Sequence record: KY703222
Source: Escherichia phage phiC120
Reading direction: 5' to 3' (one strand)
DNA: 64,000 nucleotides
Position numbers and translations under genes: made by a program
Notes under the pieces: generated by a model
The model's database searches: none
What the model was told of the DNA's origin: nothing
The model's input: only the letters and a program-made list of their open reading frames with translations
Shown here: in pieces, positions 1,992 through 34,813 of the stretch
How the letters are laid out: every line of letters starts with the position of its first letter
Position numbering within the stretch: the stretch's first letter is position 1

Positions 1992-2660
1992 TTATTTTAA
2001 TGTTATGAAAGAAGAATTACGAGTTTCACGAATTAGAACTGATCCATCGCGATTAATATAATAAATTAAGCTAAATAATGTTTGGTGAGCAGAAGCATGC
2101 ACAAAACTCGTTGGGCGAGATTTCCAATCAGGTGTTTCGGCTATCCATTGATAAATCCACCAAGGAACAGTAACATATCCTGGGCCTTTGCCTAATTTAA
2201 CGAGTGTAGGACTAAAATTTTCAGGCAGAACAAATTTTACTTCTTTATTTACCTCTGTCTCAGGCTCTTTTTCAGATTCAACAACCTGAGTAATTGCTTC
2301 TTCAAATTTATCATGGTCGAATTCTTTTTCTTGTTCGACAACTTCTAATACTTCAACTTGTTCTGTTGGAGAATCAAACAACAGAATAGCTTCTTCTTTA
2401 ACCTCTTCGTTGGTGAAATTAACACCGTCCACATCATCTGCTGCAGTAATTAAATCGGTGATAGATAATCCATCAGTTTCAGGTAATGGTTCATCAGCCA
2501 GTGCGTTAAGAGCTTCTTCGATATCAATAACAATATTATCGAATGATTTTGTTTTCTTAACACTAATGCCAAATTGTTTCGCATATTCGAACAGTTTAGC
2601 TTTGGCTTCCTTTTTATCAGAAAGAGCACGTAACTCTTCAATATAGTCTTTATCGATCAT
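1992..2660 (-). CDS. inh: acidic protein at the position of Inh (prohead protease inhibitor)
   Basis: 222 aa, acidic; lies between hoc and uvsW as inh does in T4; assignment by position and size only. Confidence 0.45.
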   Translation of the reverse strand: MIDKDYIEELRALSDKKEAKAKLFEYAKQFGISVKKTKSFDNIVIDIEEALNALADEPLPETDGLSITDLITAADDVDGVNFTNEEVKEEAILLFDSPTEQVEVLEVVEQEKEFDHDKFEEAITQVVESEKEPETEVNKEVKFVLPENFSPTLVKLGKGPGYVTVPWWIYQWIAETPDWKSRPTSFVHASAHQTLFSLIYYINRDGSVLIRETRNSSFITLK

Positions 2661-2673
2661 GGTATTTCCTCAT

Positions 2674-2681
2674 TATAAATA
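2674..2681 (+). promoter_or_regulatory. late promoter TATAAATA upstream of uvsW
   Basis: Exact TATAAATA about 30 nt upstream of the uvsW start codon. Confidence 0.6.
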
Positions 2682-2710
2682 TAACTATATTTATTACATG
2701 GTAATTTGAC

Positions 2711-4225
2711 ATGACTGACATTAAAGTACATTTTTATGATTTTAGTCACGTTCGCATTGAATGCGACGAAAGTACGTTTTACGAACTTCGTGACTTTTTT
2801 AGCTTTGAAGCCGACGGGTATAAATTTAACCCAAAATATCGCTATGGGCAATGGGATGGTAGAATTAGACTTTTAGATTACAATCGTTTGTTACCATATG
2901 GACTTGTAGGTCAAATAAAAAAGTTCTGTATCAATATGAGTTATTCTGTATGGATTGACCCTAAAATCTTTGAGACTGAAGACCTTACCAGGGAAGATTT
3001 TGACGCATGGCTTTCTAAACAAGAAATTTATTCGGGCAACACCAAAATCGAACCACATTGGTATCAAAAAGATGCAGTATATGAAGGACTAGTTAATCGT
3101 CGTCGAATTTTAAACCTTCCGACATCAGCAGGTAAATCACTAATCCAAGCACTTTTAGCTCGGTATTATCTAGAGAACTATGAAGGTAAAATTCTCATTA
3201 TCGTCCCTACAACAGCATTGACAACCCAAATGGCTAATGATTTTGTTGATTATCGCTTGTTTAGTCATTCGATGATTAAGAAAATTGGTGGTGGTGCTGA
3301 TAAAGCAGACAAATCTAAAAACGACGCTCCAATTATTGTTGGCACATGGCAAACGGTAGTTAAGCAGCCTAAAGAATGGTTCTCTCAGTTCGGTATGATG
3401 ATGAACGATGAATGCCACTTAGCAACAGGCAAAAGTATTTCTTCAATCATCTCAGGATTAAATAATTGCATGTTTAAATTCGGTTTATCTGGCTCATTAA
3501 GAGACGGAAAAGCCAATGTAATGCAGTACGTAGGTATGTTCGGCGAAATCTTCCGTCCTGTTAGCACGTCTAAATTAATGGAAGACGGACAGGTAACTGA
3601 GCTTAAGATTAATAGTATTTTCCTTCGTTATCCAGACGAATTCGCCACCAAATTAAAAGGTAAAACATACCAAGAAGAAGTTAAAATTATTACCGGACTA
3701 AAACGTCGTACAAAGTGGATTGCTCAACTTTCAGTCAAATTGGCTAAGAAAGACGAGAACGCCTTTGTAATGTTTAAACACGTTACACACGGTAAAGAAA
3801 TATTTGAAGCTATTAAAGAGCTTGGATACGAAAAAGTTTATTACGTATCAGGTGAAGTTGATACTGAAACACGTAACGCGCTTAAAGTCATGGCAGAAAA
3901 TGGTAAAGGCATCATTATTGTCGCATCATATGGAGTATTCTCTACCGGTATTTCAGTCAAGAATCTTCATCATGTTATTTTTGCCCATGGTGTTAAATCA
4001 AAAATTATCGTACTTCAAACAGTAGGTCGTGTGCTTCGTAAGCATGGTTCTAAAGCTGTTGCTACAGTTTGGGATCTCATCGATGACGCAGGTGTAAAAC
4101 CTAAATCATTAAATACTAAAAAGAAGTATACTCATCTTAATTACTTGTTAAAACACGGTATTGATCGTATCCAACGTTACGCTGATGAGAAATTTAACTA
4201 TGTAATGAAAACAATTAATTTATAA
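2711..4225 (+). CDS. uvsW: UvsW RNA-DNA/DNA-DNA helicase (SF2)
   Basis: 504 aa; N-terminus MTDIKVHFYDFSHVRIECDES close to remembered T4 UvsW; Walker A-like LPTSAGKS and DECH box. Confidence 0.95.
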   Translation: MTDIKVHFYDFSHVRIECDESTFYELRDFFSFEADGYKFNPKYRYGQWDGRIRLLDYNRLLPYGLVGQIKKFCINMSYSVWIDPKIFETEDLTREDFDAWLSKQEIYSGNTKIEPHWYQKDAVYEGLVNRRRILNLPTSAGKSLIQALLARYYLENYEGKILIIVPTTALTTQMANDFVDYRLFSHSMIKKIGGGADKADKSKNDAPIIVGTWQTVVKQPKEWFSQFGMMMNDECHLATGKSISSIISGLNNCMFKFGLSGSLRDGKANVMQYVGMFGEIFRPVSTSKLMEDGQVTELKINSIFLRYPDEFATKLKGKTYQEEVKIITGLKRRTKWIAQLSVKLAKKDENAFVMFKHVTHGKEIFEAIKELGYEKVYYVSGEVDTETRNALKVMAENGKGIIIVASYGVFSTGISVKNLHHVIFAHGVKSKIIVLQTVGRVLRKHGSKAVATVWDLIDDAGVKPKSLNTKKKYTHLNYLLKHGIDRIQRYADEKFNYVMKTINL

Positions 4226-4240
4226 GGGCTTCGGCCCTTA
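4223..4240 (+). other. intercistronic stem-loop (TAAGGGC-TTCG-GCCCTTA) between uvsW and uvsW.1
   Basis: Perfect inverted repeat with TTCG loop overlapping the uvsW stop, immediately followed by the RBS GGAGA of the next ORF. Confidence 0.5.
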
Positions 4241-4250
4241 GGAGATAAAA

Positions 4251-4481
4251 ATGGTACTTGAATTTAAACAATTTTTATACGAAGCATCTATTGACGAATT
4301 CATGGGTAAAATTGCTAGTTGTCATACCCTAGAAGGGCTTGAAGAATTGGAAGCTTATTATAAGAAACGTATAAAAGAAACGGAATTAAAAGATACAGAT
4401 GATATTTCTGTCAGGGATGCCTTAGCAGGTAAGCGTGCCGAACTTGAAGGCGACGATGAGGATGAGGAAGAAGACTTCTAA
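4251..4481 (+). CDS. uvsW.1: UvsW.1-like small acidic protein
   Basis: 76 aa ORF directly downstream of uvsW with its own RBS; acidic C-terminus; size and position match T4 uvsW.1. Confidence 0.65.
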   Translation: MVLEFKQFLYEASIDEFMGKIASCHTLEGLEELEAYYKKRIKETELKDTDDISVRDALAGKRAELEGDDEDEEEDF

Positions 4482-4486
4482 TTAAA

Positions 4487-4520
4487 AAAAGGCCCGACCT
4501 TTTTGGAAGGGCCAAAAACC
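4487..4520. terminator. bidirectional terminator between convergent uvsW.1 and minus-strand uvsY-side ORFs
   Basis: GGCCC...GGGCC inverted repeat flanked by A-run upstream and T/A-runs on both sides. Confidence 0.45.
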
Positions 4521-4540
4521 ATAGGCAAAAAAAGGTAACA

Positions 4541-4708
4541 CTATAGTAAAAGTTGGGTTTCGTTCAATTGCTCTTCTGAACTTTCTGAAACCGGCAATTG
4601 TTGTACATAATTATAACAAGGACCAGGATGTGCTGGACCTTTGTCTGTTTCAACAACCAATGCAGAATCGATTGGAGTTTTACAGACAACACAAATCTTA
4701 TCTGACAT
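4541..4708 (-). CDS. small Cys-containing protein (55 aa), possible zinc-binding; uvsY.-2 position
   Basis: Hand-translated: MSDKICVVCKTPIDSALVVETDKGPAHPGPCYNYV...; RBS GGAGG upstream; below the 60-aa cutoff of the ORF track. Confidence 0.4.
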   Translation of the reverse strand: MSDKICVVCKTPIDSALVVETDKGPAHPGPCYNYVQQLPVSESSEEQLNETQLLL

Positions 4709-4740
4709 GATTGCCTCCTAAGTTGAAATTACATATCTAT

Positions 4741-4965
4741 TTATACCACTCGCATGCACATATCGATACCCATATCTTTTGTATAAAAATACTCGTCGAT
4801 GTACCCAGCAAACTTCCCTTTAATATAAAGGACGTCTTCACCACAAGGGTGGTCTGCCAGGATACGAATATCCTGACGTCGTAGACGATACTTTTCCATT
4901 AAGAATTTAATTTCTGTTTCAAATTCTTCATCATTATTAAAGGCATCTTCAATTGAATAACGCAT
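4741..4965 (-). CDS. hypothetical protein (74 aa), uvsY.-1 position
   Basis: ORF immediately downstream of uvsY on the minus strand, abutting its stop. Confidence 0.5.
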   Translation of the reverse strand: MRYSIEDAFNNDEEFETEIKFLMEKYRLRRQDIRILADHPCGEDVLYIKGKFAGYIDEYFYTKDMGIDMCMRVV

Positions 4966-5378
4966 TATTGCCCCGCTTCAAATTCTCGCATATCTTGAAT
5001 ATGTTTAAGTGCAAAACTACGAGACTTAACTGCATCAAGTGCACCACTACAGAACTCAAGTAAAATTCCCCAGTATTGTAAAGTAGTCTCTATTTTAAGC
5101 ACATCTTTATCTGCAGCCAGGACAGTTTTCATTTCAGATTTTTCGTATCGGTCCATACTGAATTCATCACCGTCACCTCGTCCCGAGTAGTAGTCTAATC
5201 TTGCTTTTAGAGCAGTTTTCTTCTGAGTCTCTATACGCAACATTTCTTTACGAATAAATGAGTGCTTACGTAGCCATTTGCTGTATAACTTAACATTATT
5301 CGCCGTCTCATATTGCAACTTTGTCGTATCAATAGCTAAGTCTGCGTCTAACTCTTCCTGTAAATCTTCCAGCTTCAT
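4965..5378 (-). CDS. uvsY: UvsY recombination mediator (137 aa, start at internal Met of the 164-aa ORF)
   Basis: Sequence from MKLEDLQEELDADLAIDTTKLQYE...DMREFEAGQ matches remembered T4 UvsY; a middle promoter lies inside the upstream ORF extension, supporting the shorter start. Confidence 0.9.
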   Translation of the reverse strand: MKLEDLQEELDADLAIDTTKLQYETANNVKLYSKWLRKHSFIRKEMLRIETQKKTALKARLDYYSGRGDGDEFSMDRYEKSEMKTVLAADKDVLKIETTLQYWGILLEFCSGALDAVKSRSFALKHIQDMREFEAGQ

Positions 5379-6530: not shown

Positions 6531-7283
6531 ATGGCTAATATAATTCGTTGTAAATTACCGGATGGTGTTCATCGTTTTAAGCCGTTCACTGTGGCGGATT
6601 ATAGAGACTTTTTACTAGTTAGAAATGATATCGAACATCGTTCGCCGCAAGAACAAAAAGAAATAATTGCCGATCTGATTGATGATTATTTTGGCGAGTA
6701 CCCTAAAACATGGCAACCATTTATATTCCTGCAAGTTTTTGCAGGCTCTATAGGCAAAACAAAAGTTCCCGTTATTTTCACTTGCCCTAAATGCTCTAAA
6801 GAAAAAACTGCACCATTTGAGATATATCAAAAAGAACTAGTCGAACCTGAACTTGATGTTGCTGGTATAAAAATACGTTTTTCTTTCCCTGAAAAGTTTT
6901 ATGACAACAAGGCATTAATGATAAGTGAAAACATAAAAGAAATATATTATAATGGCGAATGGTACCCATGGAATGATTTGACTGAAGAGAACCAAATCCA
7001 AGTAATAGAAGCAATAGACATTGACTCTCTCGAGAAGGTTATTGCTTCTATGAACCCTATTAATTTGACCCTTAGATTAGGTTGTTGTGAACGCCATGTT
7101 AAAACATATACTGATATCTTAGAGGTTTTTAAATTGTTAGTTAACCCTGATGAGATTTTTACATTCTATCAGATAAACCATTCACTAGTAAAGAGTCAAT
7201 ACACATTGGATTCTATTATGCAAATGATTCCTGTTGAACGTGGTATTGCTTTAACATTAGTAGAAAAGGACCATAAAAAATGA
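6531..7283 (+). CDS. 51: gp51 baseplate hub assembly catalyst
   Basis: 250 aa (T4 gp51 about 249 aa); RBS AGGAG; gene order. Confidence 0.8.
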
Positions 7284-8452
7284 CAGTATTCCAACGTCCA
7301 GGATATCCTAACTTAAGCGTTAAATTATACCAAGATTATTCGGCTTGGCAAGAAAATAGATATGTTGAACTCGCAGCAACAATAACAACTTTAACCATGC
7401 GAGATTCACTATATGGAAGAAATGAAGGGATTCTTCAATTTTATGACACTAAAAACATCCACACTAAAATGGATGGTAGACAGATAGTTCAAATCTCTGT
7501 TTCAAATTCAAACACACCTCTTCAAGTTAGAACTCGAATTTATGGATGTAGACATTATTCTGTGTCTGTGGACTCAAAAGGTGACAATATTATCGCAATT
7601 GAGCTTGGAACAATACATTCTATAGAGAACCTTAAATTTGGGCGACCATTCTTCCCAGATGCAGGCGAATCTATACGTGAAATGTTAGGTGTCATATACA
7701 AAGACCGTACGTTAATTACTCCGCCAATAAACACTATTAATGCTTATGTTCCTGATATTCCTTGGACAAGCACATTTGATGATTATTTGGCATATGTCAG
7801 AGAATTAGGACTTGCTACAGCGAGTGATAAGTTCGTATTCGTATGGCAAGATATTTTAGGCGTAAACATGATTGACTACGATACTCTTATTGGCCAGGAA
7901 GGCATTAAGATGGTTGTAGGCGAGCCAAATACCGTAGGTCAGTATATTCAAGAGCTTGAGTATCCATTAGTATGGGATTTTACCTGGATGACTAAAGCTA
8001 ACCAATTTACAAGAGACCCTATTAAAAACGCCACGGTATTCGCCCATTCATTTTTAGATACATCTATTCCGGTTATTGTTACAGGTGATGGTGATAACGC
8101 TATTGTTGTGTCAAGATCTGGTGGATATTCCGAAATGACCTATCGTAATGGATTTGAAGAAGCAAGTCGTCTTCAGACAATGGCTCAATATGACGGATAT
8201 GCTAAATGCACTACTACAGGTAATTTTAACATAACGCCTGCTACTAAAATTATATTTGTTGACCAAAAGAACCAATTCAAATCCGAATTTTACGTGGATG
8301 AAGTTATTCATGAGTTATCAAATAACAACTCACAAACTCATCTGTACATGTTTACCAACTCAATGGTGTTAGAACCTGTTAACCCAGTTAAGGTTAAAAA
8401 TGAACTTAAATCTGATTCTACCTCTAAAGAAAATAATTCTACCACAGTCTAA
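7280..8452 (+). CDS. 27: gp27 baseplate hub subunit
   Basis: 390 aa (T4 gp27 is 391 aa); ATGA overlap with gene 51; gene order. Confidence 0.85.
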
Positions 8453-20951: not shown

Positions 20952-21284
20952 TCACTTATAAAGACACGGAATAGCTTTATAGTGGCATGTTACGAATTTC
21001 TGTTTAATTTCTTTAGGTTGTTTAAGACCTAAAGCCACAAATGGATGTGGAACATTTCGAATTTGTCCAACTGGTAGTGGAGTCAAATCACCGGCTTCAA
21101 CAAAACCTTCAGGAACATCAGGACCTACAGAATGAACTACACATAGTTCAGGAACTTCACCTTGAACACGTTTACCAATCACAAGTCCTGATTCGGTAAC
21201 TTCTTCATCACCTGCTTGAGCGGGTTCAGAAACCAGAATGACATATTCACCAACAGCACGAATTGGGAGTTGTACTTCAGACAT
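20952..21284 (-). CDS. 31: gp31 co-chaperonin (GroES-like)
   Basis: 110 aa; [34 protein letters not shown]... close to remembered T4 gp31. Confidence 0.9.
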
Positions 21285-21314
21285 CTTATTTCCTTGTTGT
21301 TTGACGATAGATTA

Positions 21315-21339
21315 ATAATACCATACTATTCGTAAAGCA
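21315..21339 (-). promoter_or_regulatory. middle promoter (MotA box TGCTTTA plus TATTAT) for gene 31
   Basis: Minus strand TGCTTTA, 12-nt spacer, TATTAT, then RBS and the gene 31 ATG. Confidence 0.55.
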
Positions 21340-21341
21340 TA

Positions 21342-21650
21342 TTACATAAGAAGCAAACGTTCGACCGGAGTACCATCAACCGAAATTACTTTATCAAGGC
21401 GGAAAGAACGCCACTGACCTAACTCGGTATCGAATGCTCGAACTGATTCACGAGGTTCAGAACGAACTTCTGTTGATGGGTTACTATTTTCATATTTGAC
21501 TTCAAGTTCATCGCGCGAAGCAAACATAGTGCGTACATCACCGTTAGCCTTTTCAAATACAACACAATGAACGCCTACAGACAGAATAGTTTTAATACGT
21601 TCACGAAGAACCATAGTTTCTTGTTCAGTTAAAATCATATTATTCACCAC
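21342..21650 (-). CDS. hypothetical protein (102 aa), 31.1 position
   Basis: ORF between cd and gene 31. Confidence 0.45.
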   Translation of the reverse strand: MVNNMILTEQETMVLRERIKTILSVGVHCVVFEKANGDVRTMFASRDELEVKYENSNPSTEVRSEPRESVRAFDTELGQWRSFRLDKVISVDGTPVERLLLM

Positions 21651-22221
21651 AAAAGTTTCGGATTTGTTCCCAATTCAGAGAACGAAGATTATTACGAGAG
21701 TACTGAATTACTTCAATACCAGCTTGTTTTAGAATATCTGCCCAATTTTCAGGAGATCGGTCGTATAATTCTGCGTATACGACCTTTTTAATACCTGACT
21801 GCGTAATAGCTTTAGTACAATCAGGACATGGAGAAAGCGTCGTATATAACGTAGCACCTTCAATAGAATTACCTTTACGAGCTGCAAACAAAATTGCATT
21901 CAATTCTGCATGGATTTCATTATTAGCAGACCATGCACTATGAGCAGCTCGATGTTCTTTGGCTAAAACAAAATTATCTACTCGTCCAAATGCTGTAGTG
22001 CCTTCTTTATGTCCAGCAACGATGACTGGGATTGGTTTATTCTTCAACCAACCATTTTCAGATGCATGTTCGCAACAGTTAACGCCACCTGCAGGTGAAC
22101 CGTTATATCCAGTAGAGATAATGCGTCCATCTTTTTCAATGACGGCACCAACTTTCCATGAACAACATTTTGATTCTTGAGAAATCAGATATGCAATCTG
22201 AAGGTATGTGCTAGCTTTCAT
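21640..22221 (-). CDS. cd: dCMP deaminase
   Basis: 193 aa; zinc-binding HAE...PCxxC motifs (HAELNAILFAA, SPCPDC); close to remembered T4 Cd. Confidence 0.9.
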   Translation of the reverse strand: MKASTYLQIAYLISQESKCCSWKVGAVIEKDGRIISTGYNGSPAGGVNCCEHASENGWLKNKPIPVIVAGHKEGTTAFGRVDNFVLAKEHRAAHSAWSANNEIHAELNAILFAARKGNSIEGATLYTTLSPCPDCTKAITQSGIKKVVYAELYDRSPENWADILKQAGIEVIQYSRNNLRSLNWEQIRNFCGE

Positions 22222-23213
22222 TATTGAACCTTATTAATATAAGTTAACAGCTCTTTAGTTTGTTCCCAACTGATGCACGCATCGGTAACGGAAACGCCAT
22301 AGGACATATTATCAGAAATTTTTTGATTTCCTTCATGTAGGAACGATTCTATCATAATTCCTTTGACCAAATCATTAGCTGCTAAATTTTTACCAATACC
22401 AATTTGATTGCTATAATGCCCATCAGCGTTTGCATGGCTACAGTCAACCATTACATAATGATTCAGACCTACTGCCCTTGCTTTGTTAGAAGCTTCTTGA
22501 ATATCAGAAGAATGATAGTTCGGGCCGTTGGTCCCGCCACGCAATACGATATGCGTATTCTGATTACCTTCAGCTTCAACAATGCCTACAGTACCATCGA
22601 CGTCCATACCCATATACCGATGAGGCCAGGCGGCACTATACATCGCGTCTGTAGCTACTTTAATAGAACCATTGGTTGCGTTCTTGAAGCCTACGCACAT
22701 CGGTAGACCTGAAGCAATTTCACGATGTGTCTGACTTTCAGTCGTACGGGCGCCAATAGCAACCCATGAGAAAATACCAGAAAGATACTTAATCGTGAAT
22801 GGGTCTAATACTTCAGTTGCTAATGGAAGTCCCATACGTAGAAGTTTACGACACAATGTTCGTGCAACTATAAGACCGTGGTTCATATCAAAACTTCCGT
22901 CAAGATATGGATCATTTACAAGACCTTTCCAACCTACGGTAGTTCGAGGCTTTTCAAAATAAACGCGCATCACTAACAGAACATTAGGAAGACGAGTTTG
23001 AAGTTCAGCCAGACGTTTGCCGTATTCAACAGCAGCAATAGGGTCATGAATTGAACAAGGACCTACAACAATAAGTTTGCGTGGGTCTTCACCGTTCATA
23101 ATCGAATTAACTTGTTCGCGATGAGAAGCCACTTGTGATGCGTAAGCTTCCGACAAAGGAATAATCTCAGCCAGTTCTTTTGGAGAAATAAGTTTTCCGA
23201 CGACAGGTAACAT
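22221..23213 (-). CDS. class I DAHP synthase (3-deoxy-7-phosphoheptulonate synthase, AroG/AroF-like)
   Basis: 330 aa; VMRVYFEKPRTTVGWKGL, IGARTTESQTHRE, GFKNATNGSIKVA, LRGG..PNY, VMVDCSHAN and IESFLHEGNQ align with remembered E. coli AroG motifs. Confidence 0.85.
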   Translation of the reverse strand: MLPVVGKLISPKELAEIIPLSEAYASQVASHREQVNSIMNGEDPRKLIVVGPCSIHDPIAAVEYGKRLAELQTRLPNVLLVMRVYFEKPRTTVGWKGLVNDPYLDGSFDMNHGLIVARTLCRKLLRMGLPLATEVLDPFTIKYLSGIFSWVAIGARTTESQTHREIASGLPMCVGFKNATNGSIKVATDAMYSAAWPHRYMGMDVDGTVGIVEAEGNQNTHIVLRGGTNGPNYHSSDIQEASNKARAVGLNHYVMVDCSHANADGHYSNQIGIGKNLAANDLVKGIMIESFLHEGNQKISDNMSYGVSVTDACISWEQTKELLTYINKVQ

Positions 23214-23333
23214 AACAATCCTTAGGAGATATAAACAGATTCTGATTCAACAATACCTTTAACCGGATTAGACAGGCTAAGTTGGTAGTGCTCAGATTTA
23301 TGACCATTCTCAATAGTAATGAGATAGCTCTCA

Positions 23334-23570
23334 TTATAGTGTTCCATATACTCGAGTTGCTTCAACAAGACCATCACTGCCTAATTTAAGGCTAGTAATC
23401 TGGTCACCATCTTTAGGATTAACGATTATGAGAAAAGAACGTGGAGATTCTTGAATAACTCGTAATGTTGCATCCTGGAAACGTTCAGACACTTTATTGA
23501 TGAGTGCTTGAGCAAATTCTTTTACTTTAATCTGAAATTCGTGTACTGTAATTGGGGTTTCACTTAGCAT
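23334..23570 (-). CDS. hypothetical protein (78 aa)
   Basis: ORF preceded by early-type promoter and RBS GAGGAAA. Confidence 0.45.
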   Translation of the reverse strand: MLSETPITVHEFQIKVKEFAQALINKVSERFQDATLRVIQESPRSFLIIVNPKDGDQITSLKLGSDGLVEATRVYGTL

Positions 23571-23599
23571 TTCGATTTCCTCATTGTGTTGGTAGAGTT

Positions 23600-23629
23600 A
23601 TAGTATCACAACTCCACCATGTTGTAAAC
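23600..23629 (-). promoter_or_regulatory. early-type promoter (GTTTAC -35, TACTAT -10)
   Basis: Minus strand GTTTAC-N18-TACTAT; shares the TAGTATCACA core with the element at 13141. Confidence 0.5.
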
Positions 23630-23905
23630 TTAAATTGCAAAACATTTAATTTCTTGTGAATCGAAATCAACTTCACACTGAATTACTAGTTCGGCATCAA
23701 GACCAAACACAACAATCGCATGAGCCGAGCTGGGCAGCAATGTAACAGACACAGAATCCACTTGGTCAGGCACCAGAGTATTCAAAACGTAGAGTAGTTC
23801 AGAGTGGACCTTAAGCTCAGTAGCAGTATCCAGCTTATCAAAGAAATGATTTGCGATAATCTGGCTAAAAACTACCTTTACAATTTCAGAATATTTAGGG
23901 AACAT
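23630..23905 (-). CDS. hypothetical protein (91 aa)
   Basis: ORF in the cd-pseT accessory cluster. Confidence 0.45.
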   Translation of the reverse strand: MFPKYSEIVKVVFSQIIANHFFDKLDTATELKVHSELLYVLNTLVPDQVDSVSVTLLPSSAHAIVVFGLDAELVIQCEVDFDSQEIKCFAI

Positions 23906-23912
23906 AATTACC

Positions 23913-24137
23913 TCAGTGCACAGTATTTACTTTAACTCGAACAACAAATTGCTCGGTCGGTTCACCTACAGGAACAAACTCTACATGATATTCGCCTTTG
24001 TAACGAGTATTCAGGTCGTTACGAATTTCGGTAAGCTTGTTGATTAATGTAGAACTCATATTAAGTCCTACTAGTTTACGAAGCATTTTGTATGCTTCAT
24101 CTTCGATTTCATGATGTTTATCGTACATAATTTTCAT
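23913..24137 (-). CDS. hypothetical protein (74 aa)
   Basis: ORF in the cd-pseT accessory cluster. Confidence 0.45.
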   Translation of the reverse strand: MKIMYDKHHEIEDEAYKMLRKLVGLNMSSTLINKLTEIRNDLNTRYKGEYHVEFVPVGEPTEQFVVRVKVNTVH

Positions 24138-24308
24138 TTAACCATTCAATTGCCTGGTCGACGTTATCAAATATACCACCGTCCAAACGTTCTTCATGCT
24201 CATAGTCCAGCACATCAATACCGAACTGTCCATTTACTAAAGGCCAGGCTACAAACAAATATTCTTTATGCTGTTCGATGGCCTCAATCACTTCATATAA
24301 TCGTTTCA

Positions 24309-24309
<1 letters not shown>
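24118..24309 (-). CDS. hypothetical protein (63 aa)
   Basis: ORF abutting pseT. Confidence 0.4.
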
Positions 24310-25395
<1,086 letters not shown>

Positions 25396-25396
<1 letters not shown>

Positions 25397-25695
25397 TATT
25401 TTATTCCTAAGAAAGTTTCAAGAATACGAATGTTATGCTCGCGCCGGTCTTTATTAATTTCAGCAACGTTTTTATTAATTGACGTACTTCTAACGTTTGA
25501 AGAAATAAATTTAATCATATGACTTTTGAGTTGTTGCAAATCCAACCCTTTTTCTTTAGCAGCTTTACGAAGAGCTTTACCTGCTTCATCTAGTGCCTTT
25601 GCAGCATCTTTGTCATAATTGTCAAGTGACGTTCCACGGCAGATATCAATATACTCATCAGACCGTTTTATGTAATTCTCTAGTAATGTTTTCAT
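25396..25695 (-). CDS. hypothetical protein (99 aa)
   Basis: ORF preceded by early-type promoter. Confidence 0.4.
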
Positions 25696-32352: not shown

Positions 32353-32607
32353 TTAATTATTCTTAGCAATAATTTCTTTGTATTCTTTAGGAGTCAAGAC
32401 CGTGATATTGAAATAAACCAACGGTTCTTTTTCCATACCGTAACCACCACAAAATTCACGATATTCATAAATTCGTTCATGTGAATAACAAACGAATCGT
32501 TCACCTTTAACTGTGATTTCACTATTTGGTGAAGGGATATCCAGTTCACTTGGATTTTTCATTTCAAAAATTGTGGTGCCATATGAATTAATAAAACGTA
32601 AAATCAT
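32353..32607 (-). CDS. hypothetical protein (84 aa), nrdA.1 position
   Basis: ORF between td and nrdA. Confidence 0.4.
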   Translation of the reverse strand: MILRFINSYGTTIFEMKNPSELDIPSPNSEITVKGERFVCYSHERIYEYREFCGGYGMEKEPLVYFNITVLTPKEYKEIIAKNN

Positions 32608-32608
32608 T

Positions 32609-33469
32609 TTATACCGCCATTTTAGCTTTGATAGCTGGATGTGATTCGTAATTTTTAAGAACGAAATCAGAATGTGTCATCGTTCCAGTAACCCAGTCCA
32701 TTTGGATTTTTGTAGGCCAATTCTCAAAATTACTAGGCCAATTAATTTCAAGAGAACACAACTCTTTAGGTTCACGACGAAGAACTTCTTTGCATTGCTC
32801 TACGTGGTTGCTGTAGATATGCGTATTGCCGCCTGAGAATACTAAATCACCCGGGATAAGATTACACATCTTAGCCACAATATGCGTCAAGGCAGCGTAC
32901 GAGGCAATATTGAATGGCAAACCCAAGAAAACATCAACACTTCTTTGGTACCATTGTAAATCAAGATAACCATTACGCACATTGAACTGATAGAACATGT
33001 GGCAAGGAGGAAGAGCCATTTGATTTATTTCGGCTGGATTCCAGGCAGAAACAATTTGACGACGATCAGTTGGTAATTTTTTAATACGGTCGATTGTTTC
33101 AACTAATTGGTCCACACCGCCGAAATCACGCCATTGTTTACCATATATAGGACCAAGTTCACCACTATGATAACCAAGGTCTTTTGCCTGATTTTCGTAG
33201 TTATCGTCCCAAATAGTTTTACCTTCAATTAGACTACCATGAGTACGAAGTCGTAATTCATTAACATTAGTAGAACCAGACATGAACCATAGTAACTCGG
33301 CAATACAAGCTTTCCATGCTAATTTCTTAGTTGTTACTGCAGGGAATCCTTTAGTCAGATCCCAACGTAATTTAGTTCCGAATAGGGCAATAGTGCCTGT
33401 GCCTGTACGGTCGTCTGTTTCGTAGCCATTTTCTAGGATGTCATTAATCAGGTATTGGTATTGTTTCAT
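32609..33469 (-). CDS. td: thymidylate synthase (uninterrupted)
   Basis: 286 aa continuous ORF; active-site ALPPCH and LGLPFNIASYA motifs; no intron-like interruption. Confidence 0.95.
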   Translation of the reverse strand: MKQYQYLINDILENGYETDDRTGTGTIALFGTKLRWDLTKGFPAVTTKKLAWKACIAELLWFMSGSTNVNELRLRTHGSLIEGKTIWDDNYENQAKDLGYHSGELGPIYGKQWRDFGGVDQLVETIDRIKKLPTDRRQIVSAWNPAEINQMALPPCHMFYQFNVRNGYLDLQWYQRSVDVFLGLPFNIASYAALTHIVAKMCNLIPGDLVFSGGNTHIYSNHVEQCKEVLRREPKELCSLEINWPSNFENWPTKIQMDWVTGTMTHSDFVLKNYESHPAIKAKMAV

Positions 33470-34053
33470 TTATACACGCTCTCAGTAATTTCGGTGAGTT
33501 CATCGATTCTGTAGTAATGAGATTCTACCATAGAACGTTGAAGCATAATATCTTGGATGAAATCTTTATCAAGTTGAACGTCTGAATTAACACGACATTT
33601 CTTAATGATTTTAGTCATAACAATTTCATCAGCATAAGGCAATGCTTGTTTAAGTAGAGCAGGACCGCCGATAACCGAGACATCGACATGTTCAGTAGAA
33701 AGTTTAAACGGTACGTCTGTTGAAGGGCTGAACAAGTTAATTTCACTACCCATTACCAAGGTAATAAATTCTGCTTGGGTGATATAGAAATGTGCAAGTT
33801 CGTCGGCTTTAGTCCTAGGCAGTTTTCTGGCCATATCAATGACAACCACATGAGTACGATCTGGGAGTAGACGAGGTAATGATGCAAATGTCTTAGCACC
33901 CATAACCATTACAGTGTTTTTAGTGCGAGCAACAAAGTTACTCATATCTTGTTTGATATGCTTCCATGGAAGTCCATCACCTAATCCAAAAGCATATTCT
34001 AGTTTATCATCAACTGTTTTAGACGGAGCACATGCGAACACTAATTTAAGCAT
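33466..34053 (-). CDS. frd: dihydrofolate reductase
   Basis: 195 aa; ATGA overlap with td; AFGLGDGLPW motif close to remembered T4 Frd. Confidence 0.85.
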   Translation of the reverse strand: MLKLVFACAPSKTVDDKLEYAFGLGDGLPWKHIKQDMSNFVARTKNTVMVMGAKTFASLPRLLPDRTHVVVIDMARKLPRTKADELAHFYITQAEFITLVMGSEINLFSPSTDVPFKLSTEHVDVSVIGGPALLKQALPYADEIVMTKIIKKCRVNSDVQLDKDFIQDIMLQRSMVESHYYRIDELTEITESVYK

Positions 34054-34055
34054 TT

Positions 34056-34367
34056 TTATTTCCTCAGATTTTTCTTAACAACTTTCCAATCAGCTTTAAA
34101 CGATTCAACGTCAGAGTGGTGAATCCAGAATCCTGCACTTTCGCCGTCTTCGTAGAGTGGACATCCGTCACATTCTTCGTTCCAACCCATTTCACGTAAA
34201 GCTTCTTCAGCTTGTTCAAGGAGTTCAGCATCTTTACCAACGACGTTGAAGTACCATTTACCTTTAACTTCAGAATCTTTGATGCTCTGACGTTGTAATC
34301 TCATTTTATTCTCCTTCACTTTTGATTTGATAGGGCTACTATAACATAACCCTATCTGTTTATACAC
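34056..34367 (-). CDS. hypothetical protein (frd.1 position; start uncertain, 103 or 82 aa)
   Basis: ORF; an internal Met at 34304 is preceded by RBS GAAGGAG. Confidence 0.4.
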   Translation of the reverse strand: MYKQIGLCYSSPIKSKVKENKMRLQRQSIKDSEVKGKWYFNVVGKDAELLEQAEEALREMGWNEECDGCPLYEDGESAGFWIHHSDVESFKADWKVVKKNLRK

Positions 34368-34813
34368 TACTTTTTAAAAGTTTTTTGCAAAAGTTTGATG
34401 ATTTCGTCGACGTTGGTTTCATCTACGATACAATGGATTTTTGTTACACCTAAAGTTATACCTTCGTTAGTAGGTTGAGGCTTTACTAAATCTACCTCAG
34501 TAAAGTATTTGAACTCGTCAGGATAAATCTCAAAATAAGTTTCAATTTCACCACCGGCAGAACATACAGTACCATCTTCCATAGTTACACTTACTACGTT
34601 TGGCGTATCGTTATCATAATCAGGTTCCATTCCGTTTACAACAAAACTAGGCCCATGGAGTTCAATCAATTTTAACATCTTAGCGTTATTGTGTGGTGCT
34701 TCTTGAACAAAGTCGTCTTTAAATAAAGGGTTAATGATATAAGATTTTCCGATTTCCATTTTGATTTCCTCATTTGTTGATGTGTTGTAATAAAGATTCC
34801 GCAAACGTCTCAT
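34367..34813 (-). CDS. hypothetical protein (148 aa)
   Basis: ORF in the frd-32 cluster. Confidence 0.4.
   Translation of the reverse strand: MRRLRNLYYNTSTNEEIKMEIGKSYIINPLFKDDFVQEAPHNNAKMLKLIELHGPSFVVNGMEPDYDNDTPNVVSVTMEDGTVCSAGGEIETYFEIYPDEFKYFTEVDLVKPQPTNEGITLGVTKIHCIVDETNVDEIIKLLQKTFKK

Follow-up and report, generated by a model that had tools for sequence, protein, structure and literature searches.

A DAHP synthase gene of Escherichia phage phiC120 and other T4-like phages, with conserved catalytic residues and a rebuilt regulatory site

RESULTS

Layout of the locus

The DNA analyzed here is a stretch of 64,000 nucleotides (nt) from Escherichia phage phiC120 (sequence record KY703222), which we call the window, and the subject of this report is one gene on its minus strand that is predicted to encode a 3-deoxy-7-phosphoheptulonate (DAHP) synthase. 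This enzyme catalyzes the committed entry step of the shikimate pathway, in which DAHP is formed from phosphoenolpyruvate (PEP) and erythrose-4-phosphate (E4P). The gene occupies positions 22221 to 23213, starts with ATG, and encodes 330 amino acids; its assignment to the type I-alpha enzymes is based on the list of open reading frames (ORFs), profile matches, an alignment, and a structure model. Judged by its matches to PF00793, NF009395, and PHROG 5045, it is not a chance ORF, and its translation contains the six motifs FEKPRTTVGWKGL, AIGARTTESQ, GFKN, LRGGTNGPNY, CSHAN, and HEGNQ. An earlier note on this DNA had placed a class-I DAHP synthase of this length here, between cd and pseT, and the ORF, the motifs, and the profiles all agree with it. 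No upstream extension of the ORF is possible, and homologues in other genera share its start position. A Shine-Dalgarno sequence, AAGGA, can be read on the same strand at 23219 to 23223, 5 nt 5' of the ATG.

The next gene downstream, in the direction of transcription, is cd (21640 to 22221, minus strand, 193 amino acids), which encodes dCMP deaminase. Base 22221 is both the last base of the TAA stop codon of the synthase gene and the first base of the cd ATG (TAATG). A 1-nt overlap with cd had been claimed in the earlier note and does exist, but it involves the start of cd and not its stop. The neighbors of the synthase gene in this phage group are cd, gp31, rIII, pseT, alc, and rnlA, and pseT (polynucleotide kinase/phosphatase; 24309 to 25208, minus strand) forms the upstream edge of a conserved neighborhood in which the synthase gene stands between pseT and cd.

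Family, predicted fold, and active site

All profile searches pointed to the same family. The protein matched Pfam PF00793 (DAHP_synth_1) with an E value of 5e-75 and 252 bits (cutoff, 25.5), the NCBIfam aroFGH equivalog TIGR00034 with 427.7 bits (cutoff, 173.2), and the generic, AroF-containing model NF009395 with 455 bits (cutoff, 343; E = 1e-136). The scores for the AroH model NF009396 (386 versus 463 bits) and the AroG model NF006723 (363 versus 568 bits) were below cutoff. In PHROG 5045, residues 1 to 330 aligned to profile positions 8 to 337 of 341 (E = 3e-182). The earlier note had asked for DAHP synthase and KDO8P synthase profiles to be compared, and the outcome was of the AroF/G/H type: the NCBIfam search returned only DAHP synthase models and no KDO8P synthase (KdsA) model at an E value of ≤0.01. 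KdsA belongs to the same Pfam superfamily and shares the PEP-aldolase chemistry, but the phage protein differs from it by its KPRTT loop and its Cys-His-Glu-Asp metal site, as well as by the missing KdsA match. The suggestion of a repurposed aldolase therefore found no support in either the profiles or the active site.

The closest solved structure is that of Escherichia coli AroF (PDB 6AGM; E = 5e-105), and the phage protein is 51% identical to E. coli AroF and 47% identical to AroG. An AlphaFold2 model (pLDDT, 90.2; pTM, 0.90) superposes on the Neisseria meningitidis and E. coli enzyme structures with TM scores of 0.94 to 0.95. The model shows a (beta/alpha)8 barrel with a beta6a/6b hairpin, the strands of which comprise residues 198 to 203 and 209 to 214, and the N-terminal extension is modeled as coil. 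This extension is 8 to 9 residues shorter than in any of the 98 bacterial relatives to which we compared it.

The four metal ligands, which the earlier note had listed in AroG numbering as Cys61, His268, Glu302, and Asp326, are all conserved in the phage protein, as C53, H260, E289, and D311. The residues that bind PEP and E4P in AroG (R92, K97, P98-R99-T100-T101, G163-A164-R165, K186, and R234) are all identical and correspond to phage residues R83, K88, P89 to T92, G154 to R156, K177, and R225. Over 23 members of the phage clade, the 4 metal ligands and the 11 PEP/E4P residues have zero entropy. By these sequence criteria, the phage protein is a type I-alpha DAHP synthase with an intact active site, and most likely it is catalytically competent and metal dependent.

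Rebuilt inhibitor site

The picture is different for the site where the aromatic amino acids bind as inhibitors. We compared 24 representatives of the phage clade with the 98 nearest bacterial proteins and called a column discriminating when at least 90% of the phage proteins had one residue and at least 75% of the bacterial proteins had another. Only nine columns were found, at AroG positions 73, 150, 151, 155, 156, 175, 180, 209, and 223. Six of the nine (P150I, Q151K, D155G, L175I, S180P, and F209Y) are among the 11 feedback or inhibitor-site positions compiled in PMC9529685 (hypergeometric p = 2e-8). In phage numbering, the remodeled regulatory positions are I141, K142, G146, I166, P171, Y200, and A214. 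With I141, K142, G146, P171, and Y200, the phage enzyme lacks the canonical inhibitor site for aromatic amino acids, which is a regulatory and not a catalytic feature.

The function of several of these positions has been described. P150L and S180F abolish inhibition by phenylalanine, L175D and F209A/S give feedback-resistant enzymes, the side chains of Q151 and S180 touch the main chain of the inhibitor, and D155 forms a stabilizing salt bridge (PMC9529685). Among the 98 nearest bacterial enzymes, Q151 is conserved in all and S180 in 97, and both are replaced in every phage member. I150, K151, P180, and Y209 occur in none of these 98 proteins; I150, K151, and P180 were also found in 0 of the 78 nearest GTDB genomes with a readable motif and in none of the non-T4-like viral contigs with a readable motif. 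Other inhibitor-site positions (D146, P(M147), L179, and V221) are unchanged. The N terminus is altered as well: the phage proteins have 7 to 9 residues before the column of AroG L18 and the bacterial proteins 15 to 52, and the phage N terminus is short in the segment that holds Ile11 of AroF. Deletion of this isoleucine in AroF results in a feedback-resistant enzyme (PMC10729320).

The pocket has been rebuilt and is not decaying. In the phage clade, its entropy is 0.33 bits, versus 0.91 bits for the whole protein; at the same positions in bacteria the values are 0.76 and 1.19.

We also looked at DAHP synthases of other sequences labeled as viral. The type I-alpha copies on many contigs of giant-virus metagenome-assembled genomes (GVMAG) and in IMG/VR are 42 to 52% identical to the phage enzyme (GVMAG contigs, 42 to 47%). 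Unlike the phage clade, they keep P-Q(H) and L-S where the motif is readable. They are acquisitions unrelated to the phage gene, and part of them probably represent host or contaminant DNA. As far as the motif is readable, a general convergence of viral DAHP synthases on loss of the regulatory site is ruled out by these copies, with Aeromonas phage HJ05 as an exception. This 79-kb phage, which is not T4-like, has an independently acquired, GC-rich DAHP synthase gene at 3899 to 5062, the product of which is 38% identical to ours, has 388 residues, and is extended by a long segment at the N terminus. On visual inspection, the canonical residues of the inhibitor site are missing from it, with A-H for P-Q, P at S180, and P at D155, and it may be a second phage DAHP synthase with an altered regulatory site.

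Position of the gene in related phages

The window belongs to the genus Mosigvirus (Straboviridae, Tevenvirinae); over 2.8 kb, its identity to Escherichia phages CCU7 and LF82-4 is 99.1%. Mosigvirus p000v, Kanagawavirus CIP9, Marfavirus PWKp18, Winklervirus X20, and Bragavirus PM2 share one gene order, namely, pseT, small ORFs, DAHP synthase gene, zero to two small ORFs, cd, 31.x, gp31, rIII. In a metagenomic T4-like contig, pseT, the synthase gene, and cd also follow each other in this order. The gene had been said in the earlier note to be outside the canonical T4 set, in a slot that holds cd.x ORFs, and a survey of related phages had been proposed; both were borne out, as the gene occupies the same position in related genera and is absent from T4, which has the unrelated cd.1 (112 amino acids) in this slot. 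The possibility that cd.1 is a degraded DAHP synthase was ruled out, as BLASTP similarity is absent (E = 12). RB69 (NC_004928, positions 6743 to 7503), the type Mosigvirus, has nothing in the slot, and its cd.2 stop overlaps the cd start. Unlike RB69, at least 138 other Mosigvirus-level records carry the gene, which makes RB69 a natural knockout comparator.

Many deposited genomes in GenBank and RefSeq encode this protein, often in a 100% identical form, under the names phospho-2-dehydro-3-deoxyheptonate aldolase, aroF, or DAHP synthase I alpha, and PHROG 5045 belongs to the category "moron, auxiliary metabolic gene and host takeover." By tblastn, the gene was found in 211 phage-labeled records, about 14 of which carry one of two labels that were unreliable in the records inspected, and the true count of phage genomes with the gene is about 195 to 200. 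The contig CAKLQH020000043.1, labeled as "Acinetobacter phage MD-2021a," is bacterial chromosome, with argC, clpS, clpA, and fadH as neighbors. MT837410.1, a human-gut "Bacteriophage sp." scaffold that matches the enzyme, is marked UNVERIFIED and is unannotated. Homologues of cd were found in 1215 records, so roughly one-sixth of the T4-like genomes carries the DAHP synthase gene.

Origin and selection

A search of 5.8 billion proteins showed a sharp break between clusters of the phage clade (319 to 343 amino acids, 55 to 98% identical) and those of cellular proteins (341 to 388 amino acids, at most 55% identical, from mixed phyla). A scan of 185,579 species genomes gave nothing more than 52% identical and no FTIK/LPM signature. 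A recent bacterial donor is not supported, since the best cellular matches are only 52 to 55% identical to the phage enzyme and come from mixed phyla, and no donor was identified in these searches. In a neighbor-joining tree of 123 sequences, the phage clade was monophyletic in 200 of 200 bootstraps and was sister to the group that contains AroF. Judged by these relationships, the phage enzyme descends from an AroF-like, tyrosine-type bacterial enzyme. The GC content of the gene is 41% (32.5% in Proteus phage PM2) and follows that of the phage genomes, compared with 52 to 53% for the aroF, aroG, and aroH genes of E. coli. Between genera, the ratio of non-synonymous to synonymous substitution rates is 0.15 to 0.21, with saturated synonymous sites. 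Based on these comparisons, the gene is best described as an old acquisition that has been kept by selection and circulates only among T4-like phages. It is a host-type metabolic gene among bona fide phage genes, positionally conserved and under purifying selection, and these are the features of a phage auxiliary metabolic gene (AMG).

Compared with the 993-nt gene of p000v (positions 3622 to 4614), there are three synonymous differences and no non-synonymous one. Within Mosigvirus, the gene is far more conserved than its flanks, with 3 differences in 993 nt versus about 2% over the surrounding 2.8 kb. Either strong constraint on the gene or a recent sweep or exchange of the cassette could be the cause.

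P0022, encoded at 2517 to 3515 of a T4-like contig from crustacean and other metagenomes, belongs to the phage clade but is divergent. Its regulatory site is intermediate, with P-K instead of I-K, L-P-M-P, and an 11-residue N terminus, and it may be a snapshot of stepwise remodeling.

A putative scar next to the gene

Directly 5' of the synthase gene, on the same strand, lies an apparent 120-nt spacer (23222 to 23334), and immediately upstream of this lies an intact cd.2 homologue (23334 to 23570, minus strand, 78 amino acids) that shares 76 of 77 residues with RB69 Cd.2. We compared the spacer with RB69 positions 7180 to 7330 and CIP9 positions 3240 to 3491. Directly after the stop codon of the intact cd.2 there is a relic of a cd start, ATGAGAGCTATC, which can be compared with ATGAAAGCTAGC at the real cd start (22221). 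The spacer continues with what remains, in a shifted frame, of the 3' end of a second cd.2-like gene (SYLITIENGHKSEHYQLSLSNPVKGIVESESVY), and this relic shares 20 of 39 residues with the C terminus of the ORF that precedes the synthase gene in Kanagawavirus CIP9 (E = 2e-7). The unit formed by this relic and the synthase gene is bracketed by an imperfect direct repeat of the 5' end of cd (17 of 22 positions in a hand count), and it sits at exactly the RB69-type junction of cd.2 and cd. We read 23222 to 23334 as a putative recombination scar that marks the left edge of a DAHP synthase cassette. The scar indicates that the cassette was probably introduced into an RB69-like arrangement through recombination with another T4-like phage. 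The reverse is equally conceivable, with RB69-like genomes arising by repeat-mediated deletion of the cassette.

Expression signals

A sigma-70-like promoter match (TTTACA-17-TACTAT with TG) is present on the minus strand at 23600 to 23628, between cd.3 and cd.2; it is called from its match to the consensus and from positional homology, as an early promoter is annotated at the equivalent place in T4. In the scanned region from 21200 to 25600, which includes the stretch from 23628 to cd, no terminator-like site was found on the minus strand. The promoter-like match is likely the source of a transcript of cd.2, the synthase gene, and cd. Because of this match, its T4 equivalent, and the absence of a terminator-like site, early cotranscription of these three genes is likely. 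The 1-nt overlap between the synthase gene and cd also suggests cotranscription and, possibly, translational coupling. A search for structured RNAs with Rfam gathering thresholds gave 0 matches over the whole window.

Apart from this locus, the thymidylate synthase gene td (32609 to 33469, minus strand) is a single uninterrupted ORF of 286 amino acids. In LF82-4 (32606 to 34483), a homing endonuclease separates two annotated pieces of td, as in an insertion of the intron type. The Rfam search gave no group I intron in the window, in agreement with a td gene that lacks one.

DISCUSSION

DAHP synthase is the main control point for the flow of carbon into the synthesis of aromatic amino acids, folate, and quinones in E. 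coli (PMC9529685; PMC11845039), and a phage that encodes its own version could intervene exactly at this point. The interpretation we favor, to which we give a probability of roughly 0.6, is that phiC120 and its relatives make a catalytically normal DAHP synthase early in infection that is insensitive to tyrosine, phenylalanine, and tryptophan. The phage gene would be transcribed early, together with cd.2 and cd, and because of the rebuilt site and the shorter N terminus the enzyme would not respond to the three amino acids. At that time host gene expression would be shut off, and the host isozymes would still be limited by feedback. The phage enzyme would continue to direct PEP and E4P into the shikimate pathway regardless of the pool sizes, and this would supply aromatic amino acids and, via chorismate, precursors of folate and quinones for the production of virions. 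Most likely there is no response to tyrosine, phenylalanine, or tryptophan, because six feedback positions of AroG are changed and the N terminus is 8 to 9 residues shorter. The earlier note had considered a gene for takeover of host metabolism, and the retained catalytic residues and the conserved position in phages speak for that part of it.

The phage enzyme shares with E. coli AroF (6AGM and 6AGL, tyrosine sensitive) and AroG (1KFL and 1QR7, phenylalanine sensitive) the type I-alpha class, the fold, the residues for metal, PEP, and E4P, and the beta6a/6b hairpin. Unlike these enzymes, it has the shortened N terminus and two small C-terminal deletions (of 5 and 3 amino acids), it carries, like all members of the phage clade, I, K, G, I, P, and Y at the positions of P150, Q151, D155, L175, S180, and F209, and it is encoded by a lytic phage, outside the control of TyrR. 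With the enzymes that were engineered for feedback resistance and serve in the overproduction of aromatic amino acids (AroG P150L, S180F, L175D, F209A/S, and D146N, and AroF lacking Ile11), it has in common that positions 150, 175, 180, and 209 and the N terminus are altered. Unlike the engineered alleles, the phage changes are natural, multiple, and clade wide and involve other residues (I, I, P, and Y versus L, D, F, and A/S), and here feedback resistance is a prediction. The expected outcome would be the same, namely, uninhibited entry of carbon into the shikimate pathway.

Several points weigh against an insensitive enzyme that benefits the phage. The regulatory hairpin is kept in the model, and the pocket varies less than the rest of the protein, as would be expected if it still had a use, such as binding another ligand or making a structural contact, and less so if it had simply been discarded. 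The substitution at position 150 alone proves nothing, because AroH works without a proline there. RB69 grows well without the gene, which means that it is dispensable, at least in the laboratory. The downstream enzymes of the shikimate pathway are still those of the host, and a flux gain of any size is therefore speculative. In the full-text literature, we found only mentions at the annotation level and no biochemical, transcriptomic or other expression, ligand-binding, or genetic study of a phage DAHP synthase. The amino acid composition of the phage is only weakly compatible with a benefit: the 45 coding sequences of a close relative contain 4.2% phenylalanine, 3.9% tyrosine, and 1.4% tryptophan, and the E. 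coli proteome contains roughly 3.9, 2.8, and 1.5%, so that the argument comes down to a modest excess of tyrosine.

The conservation of the pocket leads to another explanation, in which the pocket has been retuned and the enzyme is an allosteric DAHP synthase that answers to another effector. This could be chorismate or prephenate, to which other DAHP synthase classes respond, or a metabolite typical of infected cells, and the aromatic flux would then be tied to the phage program and not to the amino acid pools of the host. In a clade of 53 to 98% identity, the remodeled segment (LDPFTIKYLSGIFSW... GLPM) is almost invariant (0.33 versus 0.91 bits), the pocket positions are tighter in phages than in bacteria (for which the values are 0.76 versus 1.19), the hairpin that forms the pocket is kept in the model, and Q151K brings a new positive charge into the pocket. 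However, the sequence points to no candidate ligand, and packing at the tight-dimer interface or a locked active conformation would explain the high conservation equally well. Moreover, the lost N-terminal residues would remove part of the pocket wall contributed by the neighboring subunit, which we take to be the arrangement in the AroG structure. We consider a retuned pocket unlikely, although it comes first among the alternatives. The same holds for a wider proposal, which is just as doubtful: the phages would own an exclusive subclass of DAHP synthases, with a pocket that was rebuilt and has been nearly invariant since before the genera diverged, and either a new effector or a locked active state would place the entry into the shikimate pathway under the control of the phage.

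Another alternative is that the enzyme is an ordinary feedback-regulated isozyme of the AroF type that adds capacity after host shutoff, with the substitutions as neutral markers of the lineage. Its closeness to the tyrosine-type enzymes (AroF, 51%), G202 at the position of AroF G212, the score within NF009395, and the unchanged residues D146, P(M147), L179, and V221 of the inhibitor-site list are all in line with this. Neutral drift, on the other hand, does not predict that six of nine discriminating columns fall on feedback positions (p = 2e-8), and no phage member retains the near-universal Q151 and S180, whose side chains touch the backbone of the inhibitor (PMC9529685). Because these two conserved residues are replaced, an ordinary tyrosine-regulated isozyme is improbable, and we rank it after the retuned pocket. 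A changed substrate or product, such as a KDO8P-type synthase that uses arabinose-5-phosphate or an enzyme making a sugar acid for a phage modification pathway, would be in line with the repurposed aldolase suggested in the earlier note, and DAHP and KDO8P synthases do share the PF00793 fold. Such a change is very improbable, as the score is far above the aroFGH equivalog cutoff with no kdsA model at an E value of ≤0.01, the KPRTT loop that binds E4P and every active-site residue are identical to those of AroG and AroF, there are no companion biosynthetic genes nearby, and RB69 lacks the gene yet otherwise belongs to the same genus. That the protein works without catalysis, by acting as a decoy or a PEP sink or by binding a host protein, is hardly credible: nothing beyond the general tendency of phages to co-opt proteins speaks for it, and purifying selection has left every catalytic residue unchanged throughout the clade.

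The gene itself is already known at the annotation level. The phiC120 genome paper mentions the domain (PMC8022965), and the homologue of Kanagawavirus KLB31 was described in 2025 as an amino acid AMG, with a role that was only hypothesized (PMC11845039). The homologues in PHROG 5045, such as YP_010099966.1 of p000v, the gene called "aroF" in E. coli O157 typing phages 3 and 6, and that of KLB31, are the same gene at the same locus, and in several Mosigvirus genomes the protein is 100% identical. The published treatments of these homologues stay at the annotation level and do not mention the regulatory site, and as far as we searched, residue-level evidence for a regulatory site that is specific to the phages and probably insensitive to feedback, or else retuned, is absent from the literature. 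The regulatory hypothesis is the new part, and the value of the present analysis lies only there, since the presence of the gene has been catalogued before.

Many of the Mosigvirus genomes that carry the gene are those of phage therapy candidates, and in this respect it is a metabolic gene and not a toxin or resistance gene. If our favored interpretation of a feedback-insensitive enzyme is true, these phages would be a natural source of feedback-resistant DAHP synthase variants for strain engineering. If instead the pocket has been retuned or locked, it would be a natural allosteric rewiring, by a virus, of a textbook feedback-regulated enzyme. And if the feedback site has been disabled, T4-like phages would provide a clear case of a virus that overrides the metabolic regulation of its host at the level of the enzyme, which goes beyond the addition of capacity.

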